In this document: piece by piece, positions 5,102-14,084 of the stretch
How the letters are laid out: every line of letters starts with the position of its first letter
Position numbering within the stretch: the first letter of the stretch is position 1
Virus record (IMG/VR): IMGVR_UViG_2703718773_000013
DNA: 14,562 bases
Source of the DNA: a virus
Lineage: Duplodnaviria; Heunggongvirae; Uroviricota; Caudoviricetes
Direction: 5' to 3' (one strand)
Translations under genes and position numbers: made by a program
Notes under the pieces: generated by a model
Databases searched by the model: none
What the model saw: only the letters and a program-made list of their open reading frames with translations
What the model was told of the DNA's origin: nothing

Positions 5102-5308
5102 CTTCATTTTCACTTTCTTAAATCTAACGACAGACGGCTAACATTTAAGTATTGTGAAATATTATCAAATGTAATCATCATTGATTTACAAAAGATACAT
5201 TTTGCCCCGAAAGGATTCCTGTCAGAAACATCAAAAGATGATGTTCTATACTGAGAACCATGGCAACACGGGCATCTAAAGTGAATATGGTTTGTAATAT
5301 TTTCTACC

Positions 5309-5521
5309 TCAAAGTGCCACTACATGAACAGCCGCGGGGCCTTTAGGTCCGTTCTCAATACCAAATTCGACTTGCTGATTCTCAGTTAACGTTTTGAAAT
5401 CGTTGCTCTGAATAGCTGAGAAATGGACAAACACATCTTTGCTACCATCTTTCGGCGTGATGAAACCAAAACCTTTTTCAGGGTTAAACCATTTCACTAA
5501 ACCAGTCATTTTGTTAGACAT
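5309..5521 (-). CDS. cspI: Cold-shock protein, CspA family (CspI-like), 70 aa
   Basis: [70 protein letters not shown] contains the RNP1-like KGFGFI and RNP2-like VFVHF motifs. Long upstream untranslated region, typical of csp genes. Confidence 0.9.
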
Positions 5522-5889
5522 CATTATTACCTTTTGAAGAAGTGAGCCCTTGGGCAGAATGGTCCGAAAAAAATATCAGAGAGAAAAACCAACAAGGAAA
5601 TCTCAAGAGGTACAAATAATAAAATTATAACAATGACTGCTTCAGATAATTTTGTAACAAACCAGAACACCATTAACGCATGATTAACCAACCATAGCAA
5701 GGATTACTTTTGTAAAGAAAAACACACGAATGAAACAATAGCTTTATTTATTAATAAAACGTGTCATTCTGTCTAATGACCTTTTATCTTACCCTTAAGA
5801 TTTCAAGGATTTTGACTCATGGAAGAGTCCTTTTTATTTAAATTTCACATTCAGCGCTAAAAATAATCCGATTTAATGTTAATCTACAT

Positions 5890-8290: not shown

Positions 8291-8571
8291 AATATTGTGG
8301 TACTTTTTGTGGGAGTCATCCACTTACGCACTTTGTTTTGCTATGCCAGCAGTTAGCTTCTGCTGTAAAACTATTCATGCAGCAAACCTGCACTTCACCA
8401 CAATGGTTAGCATACTTTTCCTGATTAAGTTATTGCCAAATATGCTGGCCATTGTTTCATGTATTGGACCTCCTTACTCTTTATTAAAGAGATCCAATAT
8501 TCACCACTCTGTCTGTATCTCCACTCAGGCATCAGCCTTCTTCGTTATCGTATACAGACAAACTATGAATT

Positions 8572-8787
8572 TTAATCAGTAATTATGACATTTGCTGCTG
8601 CAGGACCTTTAGCACCACTCTCTACAGAGAAGGTAACCTTTTGACCTTCAAATAAGGTTCGATAATTATCATTCTGAATCGCAGAAAAATGCACAAACAC
8701 ATCTTTACTACCATCAACAGGAGAAATAAAGCCAAAACCTTTATCAGCGTTAAACCATTTTACTAAACCAGTCATTTTATTTGACAT
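8572..8787 (-). CDS. cspB: Cold-shock protein, CspA family (CspB-like), 70 aa
   Basis: [67 protein letters not shown]... Divergent from the cspF-like gene, as in Qin (from memory). Confidence 0.9.
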
Positions 8788-9087
8788 TCTACATTCCTTA
8801 ACTTGAGCCTTTCGGCATAAATGGCTTGTATAACAGAAACGACTTCGTACTTAATTGGAGAGACTCAAAGAAGGAATAAGTGAATAACACCTGAAATGAG
8901 AACTGCTTTAGTAAACTACTTCGTATATCGTCTGTTCTTCAAACCGACGCAATCATTAACGCATAGTTGAACATATGAAGCAATGTTTATTTTAGACATC
9001 CAGCCATCTTCAACCCCATCAAAAAACTATAGCTTTCTTCAGGAACGTGTGTATAGTGCGCCAAGTTATCAGTATTAAGGAATTTTT

Positions 9088-9722: not shown

Positions 9723-10475
9723 TTATCTCGTCACCTTTCTCAATTGTGCTTCAGCGTAAGATTCCTCCTGCCAGCACTTTGTAACCAGTTTATCAATGAC
9801 ATTTGCATATCCTTTATACCACTGATAATCACTCAGGTCCGGTACCAGCTTCTGGACATGATGCCGCGCCAGTGTGGTTGGTAAACGACTAAACCGTTTT
9901 CCATTGCAACGCCCACAAATCTTATAAACAGGTGTGCCATGAAGCCGGGTCCTTTTTTCATCCAGGACAATACCTTTACCCTTACACCCTCTGCACGCTG
10001 TGCTGACTTCTCCCTTACCATGGCAATGCTGACATAGTTCCTTCACCCACTCTTCTTTGATAACAGATTCCCCGCTTCTGGAGTGTTTCACCACTTCGCG
10101 CAATACATTATGAAATCCAGTACCAGCACAATGCTCACAACGAGCCTTACTTGCCGCAGACCTGGAATAATCAGCAAAGGCAAAATTCACAAGGTAAGGA
10201 ATAATCTGTAGCCGGGTTTCTTCACTCAATTTATTCAATGTCGGGTTATCCAGTGCCATCGCGTAATTGAGCAGACCTTCAATCGCAAACTGAGGATCCT
10301 GAACACCAACTTTTGCCAGGAATAAGGCAAACCCAAGCGGTGCTTTCGACTGCACCATCCCCTGCGCAGCCATCACATCCGTAATCGTTAAACCACCAGA
10401 GCCTGTCGCCGGTGCGTCATCACTCAATTTTGGAGATTTTGGGGAGTAATATTTTGGTAAGGCTTCAAGGTTCAT
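9723..10475 (-). CDS. Q: Late-gene antitermination protein Q (QuuQ/Q21-like)
   Basis: 250 aa MNLEALPKYYSPKSPKLSDDAPATGSGGLTITDVMAAQGMVQSKAPLGFALFLAKVGVQDPQFAIEGLLNYAMALDNPTLNK... with Cys-rich zinc motifs (CEHCAGTG, CQHCHGKG, CRGCKGKG, CGRCNG). Resembles Qin QuuQ as recalled. Confidence 0.9.
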   Translation of the reverse strand: MNLEALPKYYSPKSPKLSDDAPATGSGGLTITDVMAAQGMVQSKAPLGFALFLAKVGVQDPQFAIEGLLNYAMALDNPTLNKLSEETRLQIIPYLVNFAFADYSRSAASKARCEHCAGTGFHNVLREVVKHSRSGESVIKEEWVKELCQHCHGKGEVSTACRGCKGKGIVLDEKRTRLHGTPVYKICGRCNGKRFSRLPTTLARHHVQKLVPDLSDYQWYKGYANVIDKLVTKCWQEESYAEAQLRKVTR

Positions 10476-10488
10476 GCTCGTTCTCCAC

Positions 10489-11484
10489 TTACGCCAGTAC
10501 GCCTATTGCCAGCGCACGATCGATAAAACGAAATATCAGCTCCAGCTGGGAGCCATACTTCTCTTCAAATGCCACGGTATCCGCATGCAGCTCGTCGTGA
10601 TGCTTTCTGCACAAAGGCAACACAAAAAGGTCATGCGCTTTTGTACCCATTCCCCCCTGACCGTGGCCTATCAGGTGGTGGGGATCATCAGCAGGTTTTC
10701 CACAACATGCGCACGGCTGCGTCTTAACCCAGCGCGTGTACTTTTCATTAACCCAGCGGTGACGTTTTGGGCGTAACATAAAAGACTCCGGCGACTCCGG
10801 ATCCACTTTCAGCGCCAGCACCTTTTTCGCCTTATCCTGGATGATGCTGGTGGCAGGAACCGAAGGCACAAGGTCACTTTCCCGGGTAACAGACGGCACA
10901 ACAGGCTTCGGTAATCTCAGTGCCTTACGGGCTGCACTTTCCGGTAAGGCATCCGCCAGATCATTACGAATCAGCCACCAGCACAGTTCCGGCATTGTCA
11001 CAACATGACTGTCATCAAAACCGAGATCCCGACGCACAACAGACAACACCCAGCGGGCACAGTTATCCGTTGCCATTGATTCCAGCCGTTCCGTGAACTG
11101 ATCGCGCAGCTGGTTATCGCAGTGCCAGCACAGACGGATTGCGCCCGGAGCGTGTCGCATTGTTGTCATGTTCTCGCTGTGCCAGTCGGAATGAGGCCAC
11201 TGGCAGCCTTTTTCACGAAGTAACCAGCTTTCAAGACATTCCACGCCACCAGCACGACGGATCACTGCCTCATTGCGGAACACGGCCCGAACGGCAGGAT
11301 CATCCGCCAGCGGTTGTGATGCCGCCGGAACGGCACCACTGGCGAAAGATGAATAACGTTCCGGCTCAGGCTCCAGCAGGACACGCCCCTGCATAAACAA
11401 GGGCATCAGCTCTGAACCTGGTCTGAACAATACGATCCCCATACGCGGGGCAATTTCAGGGGTCAGTAGTGCTCTCACGGTCAC
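10489..11484 (-). CDS. YdfU-like protein (DUF968-type as recalled) with C-terminal HNH-like Cys/His motif
   Basis: 331 aa track ORF starting at GTG. A GTG at 11478 (SD gagg 5 nt upstream) or the ATG at 11442 are alternative starts. C-terminus has CACCGKPADDPHHLIGHGQGG...PLCRKHHDELH, an HNH/zinc-finger-like pattern. Sits immediately upstream of Q, as in Qin. Confidence 0.7.
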   Translation of the reverse strand: MTVRALLTPEIAPRMGIVLFRPGSELMPLFMQGRVLLEPEPERYSSFASGAVPAASQPLADDPAVRAVFRNEAVIRRAGGVECLESWLLREKGCQWPHSDWHSENMTTMRHAPGAIRLCWHCDNQLRDQFTERLESMATDNCARWVLSVVRRDLGFDDSHVVTMPELCWWLIRNDLADALPESAARKALRLPKPVVPSVTRESDLVPSVPATSIIQDKAKKVLALKVDPESPESFMLRPKRHRWVNEKYTRWVKTQPCACCGKPADDPHHLIGHGQGGMGTKAHDLFVLPLCRKHHDELHADTVAFEEKYGSQLELIFRFIDRALAIGVLA

Positions 11485-11485
11485 C

Positions 11486-12301
11486 TCAATGAACGGTATC
11501 GAGCAGCTTTAACAGCTCAGGGAATCGGGATTCGAAGAAATGCGGCTGCGTCTCGCGCGGATTTGCAGGACTGGTGATGTTCTTGCCGAACATGCAGCCT
11601 TTCGCGGTCAGCGACCAGAATTTTTTGATGTTGTTAATCGCGGTACGACTGTATCGTTCGCGTTGTTCAACGATCCCCAGCTTCGCCATCTGGTGATATG
11701 CCTGATTAGCCGTCAGGCGGATACCATACTGCTTCAGCAGTGCACTCAGCGACAGCGTAGGGCGGCTTGAACCATCTGGCGCATCAGCAGGTGCATCAAT
11801 GGCATAGATCGGCATAAGTTCAGGAAGACCAGCTACCTTTGATAATTTCTGGTATGCACCAAGTTTCGAGGAGTTTGACAGATTTAGAGTCTTTGCTGCT
11901 GATTCAAGCAGAATGACCCCGGATTTAATTTTGTCGGATGTGGTTTCTTCTGGTGATGAATTATGAAGCGCATCAAAAGTACGTATCACTTTTAAGCTGA
12001 ATGCCGGGCTGATCCACATTGCATATGCATAGACCAGCTCTTTACAGACATACGTCCCACCATTGCGCCCCTGAATGGTGATGACAGGAATACTACGGGA
12101 ATCTCCCGTAGTTTCTTCTTCCAATAATTCCACAAGAGCCTTCGTTTCAGGACGACGCATAAACTCGTGAACTTCCAGCGAACGGGAGGAGCGATTCTCA
12201 CCAGCGGCAAGAAGAGCAGCTTTCTGAAGGTCGTTAAGACAGTAGTTAGATTCGAAGTACTGGCGCACAGAAACGCCATCAATTACAAGCAACTGATTCA
12301 T
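11486..12301 (-). CDS. KilA-N domain protein (putative antirepressor-type regulator)
   Basis: ATG at 12301 with SD ggag 7 nt upstream (track ORF begins at GTG 12313). N-terminal region LLVIDGVSVRQ...IQGRNGGTYVCKELVYAYAMWISPAFSLKVIRTF matches the KilA-N (APSES-like) signature GRNGGTW...WLSP.F..WV. Confidence 0.75.
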   Translation of the reverse strand: MNQLLVIDGVSVRQYFESNYCLNDLQKAALLAAGENRSSRSLEVHEFMRRPETKALVELLEEETTGDSRSIPVITIQGRNGGTYVCKELVYAYAMWISPAFSLKVIRTFDALHNSSPEETTSDKIKSGVILLESAAKTLNLSNSSKLGAYQKLSKVAGLPELMPIYAIDAPADAPDGSSRPTLSLSALLKQYGIRLTANQAYHQMAKLGIVEQRERYSRTAINNIKKFWSLTAKGCMFGKNITSPANPRETQPHFFESRFPELLKLLDTVH

Positions 12302-12398
12302 TGGTTTCTCCACAAATTTTTATCCACGAGCGGGACTGCACTCCCTTTTCGTTGATGCCGGATGAACTTACTGCGATTTTTAATAGTTATCAAGGATA

Positions 12399-12418
12399 CA
12401 CTGTTCATAAATACAGTA
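12399..12418. promoter_or_regulatory. LexA (SOS) box, CTGT-N8-ACAG, about 100 bp upstream of the KilA-N gene
   Basis: cACTGTtcataaatACAGTa has CTGT at 12401-12404 and ACAG at 12413-12416 with an AT-rich 8-nt spacer. It is the only canonical CTGT-N8-ACAG match I found in a manual scan of the window. Possible -35 (tgaaca) and -10 (tattaa) elements overlap it on the minus strand. Confidence 0.65.
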
Positions 12419-12463
12419 TCTTTAACGAGGTAATACCCAAATTTAGGGTGTTGCTCAATTCCG

Positions 12464-12859
12464 TTACCGAGTTGCTAATTTGCAACTCGCTTTTTCGTAC
12501 TTACTGATAGTGATCTCGACCTTCCCCTCCGGGATAACCGGTCCCCACTCCACCAGCATTCTTTTCACCTGACTGTCGTCTTCCCACACACCCGCGTGGG
12601 TCAGGGCGTCAAACAGCGCCTTGTTATAGTTGTCCAGATCGCGGATCCGGTTATCCGGAGGAAACAACACGATCTCCACTGAAGCAGGTGCCGACGTTGG
12701 TTTCGGCAGACGACGTAACTGCTCAACTATTGCTGCACACGCCGCGCTCTGGAATTTTCGCCCCGCCGCGCTTATCAGGCTCTTACCAGCAAACGCCCCT
12801 TTGTTGGGGTGTCGCCAGTACGTGTTCACGCTGGGCGGAAAAGGCAGGAGCAGCTTCAT
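12464..12859 (-). CDS. rusA: RusA-family Holliday junction resolvase
   Basis: 131 aa MKLLLPFPPSVNTYWRHPNKG...VEIVLFPPDNRIRDLDNYNKALFDALTHAGVWEDDSQV has the RusA hallmarks (PPS.N.Y, RRDLDN, DAL). Start overlaps the stop of the upstream methyltransferase gene. Confidence 0.88.
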   Translation of the reverse strand: MKLLLPFPPSVNTYWRHPNKGAFAGKSLISAAGRKFQSAACAAIVEQLRRLPKPTSAPASVEIVLFPPDNRIRDLDNYNKALFDALTHAGVWEDDSQVKRMLVEWGPVIPEGKVEITISKYEKASCKLATR

Positions 12860-13596
12860 ACTTTCAGGCCTCTCTCATGTAACCAATGGGCTGCACGCAG
12901 CCTAGCGTTTTCCTCACCGGCAAGCAGTGAGCGGATAATCCCGACCGCCTCGCTGTCGTCGTCCTTCACCACGGTATGAAGCGTGATCCCCCGGGCCACA
13001 CCACGCTTTATCGTGATGACGCCTTTTTTCTCCAGTGCGCGAAGATGCTCCACCGCTGCATTCACTGAACGGTATCCCAGCATGGTTGCCACCTCCTGAT
13101 TGGTTGGCGGGAAGCCACGTTCTTTCTGATAAGAAATCAGCATATCCAGCACCTGCAAACGCCCGCGAATAAAAGCAATATGGTCTGCATCTTCCGGCCA
13201 CCACACTTCGCTGGTGGCAGCTTTGATCAGGAAAACATAGCGCCCGCCTTTATCACGCATAGCACTGGCATGTTTCATGATGTAACGCATGCCGGTGATG
13301 TATTGCCCCTCATGCTGACTGGCGCGGCTGTACGGGGGATTGCCAAAGGCAGCACCTTTAAGCTCCGCAAGACGTTCTGACCAGTCATGCGCCAGCGCGT
13401 TGTCTTCCGCAGTGTAATAAGCGGCACATTTGGCGTTATCACCATCAGTAAACAGATCCAGAACAAACGGGCCAAACAGGGTGTTAATTCCCCAGAAAAT
13501 GTTGTCCGGCGTGCGCCACTGATCGCCCACTTCCTTCAGTTCATGGGCTGGTTTGTTCCGCAGCTCCACCAGCGCCTGGCAATATTTATTACTCAT
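12856..13596 (-). CDS. Phage Dam-type N6-adenine DNA methyltransferase fused to a C-terminal LexA-like winged-helix DNA-binding domain
   Basis: ATG at 13596 with SD ggggg 5 nt upstream (track ORF starts at GTG 13629). The N-terminal ~155 aa carry the catalytic NPPY motif (AAFGNPPYSRAS) and resemble prophage Dam methylases. The C-terminal QKERGFPPTNQEVATMLGYRSVNAAVEHLRALEKKGVITIKRGVARGITL aligns with the E. coli LexA N-terminal domain at roughly 60% identity by eye. No S24 peptidase domain follows. Confidence 0.75.
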   Translation of the reverse strand: MSNKYCQALVELRNKPAHELKEVGDQWRTPDNIFWGINTLFGPFVLDLFTDGDNAKCAAYYTAEDNALAHDWSERLAELKGAAFGNPPYSRASQHEGQYITGMRYIMKHASAMRDKGGRYVFLIKAATSEVWWPEDADHIAFIRGRLQVLDMLISYQKERGFPPTNQEVATMLGYRSVNAAVEHLRALEKKGVITIKRGVARGITLHTVVKDDDSEAVGIIRSLLAGEENARLRAAHWLHERGLKV

Positions 13597-14084
13597 TAAG
13601 CCCCCACGTAATTCCCTGACAGATACCACTCTTCACCCGATGCAGCGCGCTTGCTGCTTTTCCGTAAGCACCGCTCACGATGCGCCAGAAAATTGTTTCG
13701 TTCTGGCTGGGAGTGGCTTTCACGGAATGCCGCCATCCACACCGTTGCAGCTCGACGGAATAAGCCCCTGGACTCCAGTTCTTCAGCCTGGCGGGTCAGG
13801 CACAAAATCACCCGGGGGTCGTTAGTGCCGACATAGAAATTGCGCACAGGTCTGGTTTCACGAACAGATTGTGGTTCCGGCTCCTGCGCTCTCTCAGTCA
13901 GGCGCGGGAAATGTCTGCGTGTATCTCCTTCACAACGGTGAGCCACACGCCCACTCTGACGTAACTTGCTTGCTGACTGCAGAACGCGCTGCCGTGAGTA
14001 ACCAGCAAAAGCATCTGCAATGTCTCCGGAAGTACAGCCCGGATGGGCTTCAATGAATTTCTGAACGTCATTCAAAAGACTCAT
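13596..14084 (-). CDS. Putative regulator with N-terminal wHTH-like region and C-terminal PerC-like domain (YfdN-like)
   Basis: ATG at 14084 with SD aggggg 6 nt upstream. C-terminus LESRGLFRRAATVWMAAF...HRERCL...LSGNYVGA resembles the PerC/Pch family signature (GLWRRAA..W ... YVG) as recalled. Stop overlaps the methyltransferase start (ATGA). Confidence 0.6.
   Translation of the reverse strand: MSLLNDVQKFIEAHPGCTSGDIADAFAGYSRQRVLQSASKLRQSGRVAHRCEGDTRRHFPRLTERAQEPEPQSVRETRPVRNFYVGTNDPRVILCLTRQAEELESRGLFRRAATVWMAAFRESHSQPERNNFLAHRERCLRKSSKRAASGEEWYLSGNYVGA

Follow-up and report, generated by a model that had tools for sequence, protein, structure and literature searches.

The stretch of DNA analysed here (the window; 14,562 nt, IMG/VR virus record IMGVR_UViG_2703718773_000013) is part of a lambdoid prophage, and all genes relevant to this analysis lie on its minus strand. 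In order, they encode a PerC-like protein, an open reading frame (ORF) combining Dam and LexA_DNA_bind domains, RusA, and, after a gap of 162 bp, a KilA-N domain protein, a DUF968/HNH protein and the antitermination protein Q, followed by lysis and terminase genes. This gap runs from the rusA stop (12464) to the ATG of the KilA-N gene (12301), both genes being confirmed by Pfam, and it is the only sizeable intergenic gap of the operon. Within it lies a 20-mer at positions 12399-12418 that resembles an SOS box, i.e. an operator of the repressor LexA, and that is the subject of this work. The block of LexA-like, RusA, KilA-N, DUF968 and Q genes is syntenic across many genera. In the closest genome, E. 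coli O103:H2 PV16-126 (99.9% identity), the region is part of what looks like a complete lambda-like prophage in which Q is labelled ydfT/antitermination protein and the box sits about 4 kb from the cI/cro region, i.e. outside the immunity region; the box region is also 98.7% identical in Shigella phage SfIV and 99.5% in Escherichia phage PhiR49_1. The public records inspected have no regulatory feature annotated at the site of the box, and in the literature we found no paper on this box or on KilA-N together with LexA.

The 20-mer reads CACTGTTCATAAATACAGTA on the plus strand and TACTGTATTTATGAACAGTG on the minus (coding) strand. It fits the palindrome CTGT-N8-ACAG within a 20-mer of the TACTGTATATATATACAGTA type, the criterion for gammaproteobacterial LexA operators. 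A scan of the whole window recovered this match as the single one, just as a preliminary description of the DNA had stated, with 0.16 expected by chance and at least one match in 27 of 200 shuffled windows. That description had also proposed scoring with a LexA matrix, for which we combined 28 E. coli LexA sites known from the literature into a symmetrised matrix, no curated file being used. On this matrix the box reached 21.46 bits, ranking about 11th among the 28 genuine sites (12.5-26.8 bits) and thus in their upper half, and the runner-up of the window scored 10.25 bits. The best scores of 300 windows simulated with a first-order Markov model averaged 9.5 bits (sd 2.5, maximum 19.3), none of them reaching 20 bits. 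The heterology index of the box was 5.1-6.6 on our own set, compared to 2.1-12.0 for genuine sites on the symmetrised set, both resting on this uncurated site list. The same 20-mer is found unchanged in 42 IMG/VR copies and two metagenome contigs, and in SfIV and E. coli AZ187 the outermost base is altered towards the consensus, which raises the score to 23.4 bits. Positions 12399-12418 are thus a canonical and statistically exceptional predicted LexA site.

Promoter candidates were ranked on both strands of the window with a rough, self-made hexamer matrix. The best sigma-70-like site on either strand was the predicted promoter P2 (Table 1), with a fraction of candidates matching or exceeding it of 0.0000; a simple consensus scan did not list it because its -10 matches at 3 of 6 positions only. 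P2 starts 5 bp downstream of the box, which would place the box at about -60 to -41 (centre near -50.5), the +1 near 12358 and a leader of about 57 nt ahead of the KilA-N gene. Candidates that overlap the box are all weak (TTGGGT-16-TACTGT and ATGAAC-17-TATTAA), and the first of these, P1, was read by eye, falls outside the top candidates of the ranking and has a -35 of TTGAAT in AZ187. The overlap of the box with plausible promoter hexamers, as claimed in the preliminary description, therefore applies to these weak candidates, and the box adjoins promoter-like hexamers, but the best promoter begins 5 bp further downstream.

Comparison with full-length homologues gathered from other Enterobacterales (L-numbers are labels of the related loci) revealed that such dyads recur. 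Among about 25 homologues with a long gap, the 200 nt upstream held 10 sites of at least 11 bits, where about 0.2 would be expected from a background of 12 in 264,489 positions, and in the 18 short-gap loci there was no LexA-like site of at least 11 bits upstream of KilA-N. The dyad is kept at the same place between genera although the flanking sequence is unalignable. Outside E. coli and Shigella a good LexA half-site, (A/C)CAG(T/C), is always present on the right, and the left half is often GTG, ATG or TTG, not CTG, so that these dyads score 7-16 bits with the exception of Edwardsiella (19 bits). The canonical site of the window is the best predicted LexA match in this family of weaker dyads.

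The arrangement of dyad, 5 nt, -35, 17 nt and TAAnnT is shared by Klebsiella, Raoultella, Kluyvera, Leclercia, Kosakonia and the IMG/VR contig L134, with diverged spacers. The hexamers equivalent to P2 are TTGAAA/TAATGT in Klebsiella and Leclercia, TTGAAG/TAATCT in Raoultella and TTGCTA/TAATGT in Kluyvera, and poor -35 hexamers (ATGCTC) are combined with an extended -10, TGnTAAGGT, in Kosakonia and L134. A different placement is seen in Erwinia, where the dyad spans -17 to +2 of a strong TTGCCA-17-TATATT promoter, the classical position for repression, and in Buttiauxella-type loci, where it lies inside the promoter spacer. The predicted leader measures about 54-59 nt in both promoter classes (window type and Erwinia/Buttiauxella type). 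A putative promoter adjoining the dyad is well supported by this conservation, and in the class of the window the box flanks the predicted core promoter and does not cover it.

Downstream of the box, the DUF968 ORF as listed has a GTG start and shares 1 nt with the KilA-N stop; the start annotated in relatives is an ATG 7 nt past that stop. No convincing sense-strand terminator was found between the genes at the KilA-N/DUF968/Q junctions, nor was there one ahead of the box. Given these overlapping or 13-nt-spaced genes and the lack of a credible sense terminator, a promoter released by LexA would feed Q. We lean, at slightly better than even confidence, towards a reading of 12399-12418 as a host LexA operator on an internal promoter of the lambdoid early-right operon, which would give KilA-N, DUF968 and Q a direct SOS input. 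The box is probably a real, functional LexA operator, and DNA damage probably switches on the KilA-N gene and the late-gene activator Q directly. In a lysogen, LexA bound to the box, at the upstream edge of P2 and over P1, would hold the promoter region down. Upon DNA damage, self-cleavage of LexA would allow transcription to start about 57 nt upstream of KilA-N and to continue through the DUF968/HNH gene into the gene of the late-gene antiterminator Q, and this route would be independent of, and parallel to, the RecA-stimulated self-cleavage of the phage CI. During infection of an undamaged cell, the three genes would be reached solely by read-through from pR. Occupancy by LexA, the position of the start site, repression exerted from about -50, the extension of the transcript into Q and any phenotype are inferences. 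The preliminary description had proposed a LexA-gated switch of the antirepressor type; LexA gating of the KilA-N operon is plausible with a canonical box beside promoter-like hexamers in the operon gap, and it is the antirepressor part that did not hold up, as discussed below.

Several points weigh against such an SOS input. LexA operators usually occupy a position of occlusion, and from a centre near -50.5, upstream of the -35 of P2, repression could be weak; it would have to act via the upstream contacts of RNA polymerase (the C-terminal domain of the alpha subunit and an UP-element) or via the weak overlapping promoter. P1, which the box does overlap, is poor and unconserved in Klebsiella and Raoultella. 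The left half-sites of the closest relatives outside E. coli (GTG, ATG or TTG; 7-15 bits) suggest that the ancestral dyad may serve another protein, and both the LexA and the hexamer matrix are self-made. Moreover, a release of Q upon LexA cleavage alone would risk costly lysis without phage production.

A candidate for another ligand is encoded at the locus itself. As stated in the preliminary description, a LexA-domain protein is made from the same strand just upstream, its gene lying two genes upstream of KilA-N. That description had further called it a fusion protein, which is true of the ORF in the window but reflects a 236-nt deletion private to it: the deletion takes away the C-terminus of Dam together with ~8 codons at the start of a separate LexA-like gene and is absent from all relatives examined, including the 99.9% identical prophage, where a 217-aa Dam and a 108-aa LexA-like protein are encoded. 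The LexA-like protein shares 42% identity with residues 10-86 of E. coli LexA, has a C-terminal tail of about 35 aa and lacks the S24 domain. Where LexA has RSPNAAEEHL in the recognition helix and SRG in the wing, the phage protein has RSVNAAVEHL and ARG, and it keeps S39, N41, A42, E45, R64 and G65, which we take to be DNA-contacting residues of LexA. Proteins of this family (~106-116 aa) consist of the N-terminal winged helix of LexA and a short tail without the S24 protease domain, and in the lambdoid prophages of many Enterobacterales their LexA_DNA_bind genes immediately precede rusA (L012 14294-14620, L004 1769-2095, L181, L183, L185-L190). The E. coli-type members retain an LLAGE motif that aligns with the AAGE cleavage region of LexA. 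We found no study of enterobacterial truncated LexA homologues in the literature.

The dyad might mainly be the operator of this truncated 108-aa homologue, with host LexA as a secondary, competing ligand, which we consider unlikely on balance. The phage protein would either activate P2 from about -50 or re-silence the site once host LexA is destroyed. Activation has a precedent in the Bacillus thuringiensis tectivirus GIL01. Two proteins act on its late promoter P3: host LexA represses it, and the phage LexA homologue gp6, which shares 44% identity with host LexA and binds a palindrome centred at -43.5, activates it (Fornelos et al. 2018, PMC6182141). A LexA_DNA_bind gene is located directly upstream of rusA in all loci with the geometry of the window (the window itself, L179, L011, L134, L005, L017, L183, L188 and L189) and also upstream of rusA in Buttiauxella-type loci, and S39, N41, A43, R64 and G65 are invariant in the family. 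Furthermore, exactly 5 nt separate the end of the dyad from the -35 in six diverged genera, and two of them pair a poor -35 (ATGCTC) with an extended -10, fitting activator dependence. In those genera the dyad deviates from the LexA consensus (GTG..CAG). On the other hand, the LexA-like gene is equally common in phages without a dyad upstream of KilA-N (SfV, SfII, Stx2a_WGPS2, Ayreon, L018, L185). Conversely, the gene is missing from dyad-bearing loci of Yersinia YeP3, Serratia, Rahnella, Erwinia, Pantoea and Rosenbergiella, and from O157:H7 NE122, which carries the exact box. No further copies of window-type dyads were found in the flanks of related loci, residue 45 of the LexA-like protein shows no clean covariation with the left half-site of the dyad, the gene of the window is a deletion fusion, and the site of the window fits host LexA better than it fits the GTG-type dyads. 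It is likewise doubtful, in our estimate, that the box is a shared operator through which two LexA-family proteins jointly time the lytic cascade. Host LexA would then silence the KilA-N/DUF968/Q promoter in the lysogen, and after induction the uncleavable phage homologue, made from pR, would take over this site and possibly every host SOS box, and would either activate P2 from about -50 in the manner of gp6 or shut the promoter and the host SOS regulon off again. If true, this would be, as far as we could find, the first LexA mimic of a Gram-negative, lambdoid phage wired to the control of Q.

Another possibility is the one originally proposed, in which LexA cleavage releases KilA-N as an antirepressor that binds the prophage CI and thereby leads to induction. 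LexA-controlled antirepressor operons are known from the Gifsy-1, -2 and -3 prophages of Salmonella, with Tum of coliphage 186 and AntC of N15 cited alongside (Lemire, Figueroa-Bossi and Bossi 2011, PMC3121763). The position of the box outside the immunity region, ~1-2 kb downstream of the replication genes, is in general that of the Gifsy box, and KilA-N N-domains occur in some annotated antirepressors, e.g. in Ant of the P22-like phage Emek, which has 43% identity over residues 5-121 and a P22-Ant C-terminus. The Gifsy repressors are not cleaved, hence their antirepressors are required (PMC3121763). In contrast, the repressors of four out of four box-carrying prophages (O104:H4, O157:H7 NE122, PhiR49_1 and SfIV, from which they were read given that the immunity region lies outside the window) represent three types and all possess Peptidase_S24 (E values of 6e-19 to 1.5e-26), a GDSM Ser, a conserved Lys and a cleavage region of the AG type. 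Since both catalytic residues of S24 are in place, they count as self-cleaving repressors of the lambda type, so an antirepressor would not be needed. The box module also adjoins at least three unrelated immunity regions, which is hard to reconcile with a repressor-specific antirepressor, even if Gifsy antirepressors do act on non-cognate repressors (PMC3121763). Many phages carry the KilA-N gene in the same operon slot without the box, suggesting a general lytic function. The sole link to antirepressors is the widely shuffled KilA-N domain (PF04383, E value 1.3e-15, 57.6 bits, residues 10-114); PHROG 129, to which the protein was assigned (4e-109), is labelled 'transcriptional regulator'. For the C-terminal half nothing was found in Pfam (E<=10), NCBIfam or a PDB sequence search, including no ANT, Tum or other antirepressor family. 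In an AlphaFold2 model (mean predicted local distance difference test score 76.6), an N-terminal KilA-N fold is joined through a helical linker to a C-terminal alpha/beta domain. No PDB entry fell below E = 0.7 in a Foldseek search with this model, the non-significant matches being winged-helix-like (DdrC, MarR, PadR) together with Mbp1-like hints. Considering the missing antirepressor-specific match in sequence or fold, the S24 repressors and the promiscuous module, we regard an antirepressor function as improbable. The KilA-N protein is most likely a DNA-binding factor of the lytic cycle.

It is considerably less probable that the palindrome is a chance or vestigial feature and that KilA-N is expressed by pR read-through alone. 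Most relatives indeed do without the box or the gap, and the E. coli copies are too alike to show purifying selection, with one change in the 20-mer of AZ187 compared to ~1.1 expected (estimated from aligned sequences); yet the observed score was not reached in any of the 300 simulated windows, the box occupies non-coding DNA immediately next to the top-ranked promoter-like site, and other genera have dyads at the same place even though their intergenic regions cannot be aligned. Small antisense RNAs accompany several SOS-regulated loci, and a plus-strand hairpin of CGAGTTGCTAATTTGCAACTCG then CTTTTTCG follows 50 nt past the box, but control by the box of a short antisense transcript ending at this terminator-like hairpin and T-run in the 3' end of rusA is very improbable in view of poor plus-strand promoter candidates (best -10 GATTTT), no match in Rfam and the restriction of the hairpin to the allele of the window.

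Table 1. Annotated and predicted features around the box in the window.
Feature	Position	Strand	Remarks
Predicted SOS box (LexA operator), 20-mer CACTGTTCATAAATACAGTA	12399-12418	.	CTGT-N8-ACAG core at 12401-12416
Predicted sigma-70 promoter P2	12365-12393	-	-35 TTGATA 12393-12388, 17-nt spacer, -10 TAAGTT 12370-12365
Weak alternative promoter P1 (candidate), overlapping the box	12413-12440	-	TTGGGT 12440-12435, 16-nt spacer, TACTGT 12418-12413; read by eye
Leader hairpin ACGAaaaGGGA-GTGCAG-TCCCgcTCGT	12326-12352 (core 12345-12332)	-	between predicted +1 and ribosome-binding site
Terminator-like hairpin CGAGTTGCTAATTTGCAACTCG then CTTTTTCG	12468-12497	+	antisense to rusA 3' end, 50 nt beyond the box, in allele-specific segment
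Truncated Dam methylase fused to homologue of LexA N-terminal domain	12856-13629	-	Pfam Dam and LexA_DNA_bind (1.9e-14)
rusA	12464-12859	-	Pfam RusA; last ~30 nt part of the allele-specific module bringing the box
KilA-N domain gene, 271 aa	11486-12301	-	first gene downstream of the box; GGAG ribosome-binding site 12311-12308
DUF968/HNH-like gene (YdfU family)	10489-11484	-	Pfam DUF968 (3.4e-81) and HNHc_6
Antitermination protein Q	9723-10475	-	last gene of the block; Pfam Antiterm (1.5e-53); 13 nt after DUF968

The predicted leader contains a further conserved element, a hairpin with a TGCAG loop, which is present within 100 nt upstream of the KilA-N ATG in 27 of 32 homologous loci and, as a (G/T)TGCAG loop, precedes the ribosome-binding site of KilA-N by 15-45 nt (L004 about 2455-2475, L005, L014, L022, L037, L134 and others). 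RNAalifold on a MAFFT alignment was blurred by differences in loop length, so stems were counted directly; 21 different stem/loop combinations were found and the stems therefore covary. Elsewhere in the same loci, 17% of TGCAG occurrences have such stem flanks. Short-gap phages carry the hairpin within the final codons of rusA (GGCGG-GTGCAG-CCGCC), and Morganellaceae have a related one with a TRTACGG or ATGCGG loop. Rfam had no match in the gap, neither at gathering thresholds over the whole window nor at permissive thresholds over 12250-12520. The hairpin might serve as an RNA operator bound by a protein, or mark a site of processing. An upstream ORF of 36 codons on the minus strand (12298-12408), whose ATG at 12408 lies inside the box and which ends in ATGA with the KilA-N start, is probably spurious: a ribosome-binding site is missing, the predicted +1 falls downstream of its start, and an 11-nt deletion allele (~39 genomes) shifts its frame. 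The hairpin at the end of rusA was rejected as a sense-strand terminator since the sense strand carries no U-run there.

The box allele was found in 186 of 5426 complete E. coli genomes, among them O104:H4 2011C-3493, O157:H7 NE122 and FRIK944, O103:H2 and O111:H8, and also in Shigella phage SfIV. Short-gap relatives have 16-19 bp between rusA and KilA-N and no box (SfV, SfII, Stx2a_WGPS2, Ayreon, Salmonella 118970_sal3 and the Morganella phage), and a 19-bp gap without the box is the state of most relatives. The KilA-N protein of the window is 61-70% identical to the short-gap proteins of E. coli, Shigella and Salmonella and ~53% to that of Morganella. Similarity to the short-gap SfV, Stx2a and Salmonella phages stops ~30 nt ahead of the rusA stop, and thus the gap, the box and this KilA-N allele were acquired together by recombination. 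The variant with the 11-nt leader deletion retains the box, and the module adjoins at least three immunity types and at least three Q types.

Further SOS boxes were observed in this phage group. One immunity type, which includes the closest relative of the window, has a box of 24.9 bits (TACTGTTTTTACATACAGTA) located ~210-230 nt inside the gene of a cI-like XRE/S24 repressor (L012 10737, L174 1839, L177 1842, L178 about 25720). Boxes of 20.6-24.2 bits, e.g. TACTGTAAAAATAAACAGTG, lie downstream of Q in L004 (5675, SfV), L007 (5520, Morganella phage), L174 (11448, O104:H4), L015 (6156), L023 (5951) and L042 (5460); the first three overlap the start of a DNA methyltransferase gene, and L015, L023 and L042 are unannotated. 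L012 additionally has two boxes before a dinI-like gene (27278 and 27306). With further strong boxes at dinI-like and DNA methyltransferase genes and inside cI, LexA control of internal promoters seems to be common in this phage group. Lytic functions are governed by LexA boxes located outside the immunity region in Gifsy, 186 and N15 (PMC3121763) and at P3 of GIL01 (PMC6182141); LexA-controlled prophage promoters of this kind are already known and the one predicted here is a further case. Unrelated to SOS boxes, the late region of the prophage contains two full-length matches to the cspA thermoregulator RNA family on the minus strand (8509-8948 and 5282-5678; 156.7 and 113.8 bits), which correspond to inserts of cold-shock genes (cspB and cspI in the closest genome).

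If functional, the box would provide a route from DNA damage to Q that bypasses the CI/Cro switch and could lower or reshape the threshold of induction. Late-gene and lysis expression could then follow damage at the level of LexA, not of CI, and could couple the prophage to cross-talk with co-resident prophages. The allele is not rare, as seen from its frequency in E. coli and its presence in the serotype-converting SfIV, so the effects of antibiotic-induced SOS on these prophages may depend on the box. The locus also points to two further elements, the family of phage proteins with a LexA DNA-binding domain and the conserved leader hairpin before KilA-N genes.

In the chromosomal SOS promoters of E. 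coli (recA, sulA, umuDC and lexA), the box overlaps the -35 or -10 hexamers or the +1. The window has the same 20-bp operator of the TACTGT-N8-ACAGTA type, with a score within the validated range; in contrast to these promoters, its box overlaps a weak candidate promoter only, the strong one having its -35 downstream of the box. The resemblance to GIL01 consists in a truncated phage LexA homologue that is mainly a DNA-binding domain (42% identical to host LexA here, 44% there), in a palindrome just upstream of a promoter directed towards late functions and in host LexA boxes at the same promoter. However, gp6 has its own palindrome (GaCACAC GTGTGaC) at -43.5 with separate LexA boxes downstream, whereas here a single host-type dyad is located near -50.5; the target operon here carries Q instead of the late genes proper, and the two systems differ in host phylum and phage family. 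The Gifsy prophages differ in their uncleaved repressors and in small antirepressors encoded after a dinI-like gene, in place of which the box-carrying prophages have intact S24 repressors and KilA-N, DUF968 and Q downstream; the Gifsy box is also preceded by a terminator-like palindrome, and the box of the window by no sense-strand terminator. Nevertheless, both are lambdoid prophages in which an internal promoter, located past the replication genes and not in the immunity region, has a box for host LexA, and as in Gifsy, DNA damage would be sensed via LexA and not solely via the phage repressor.

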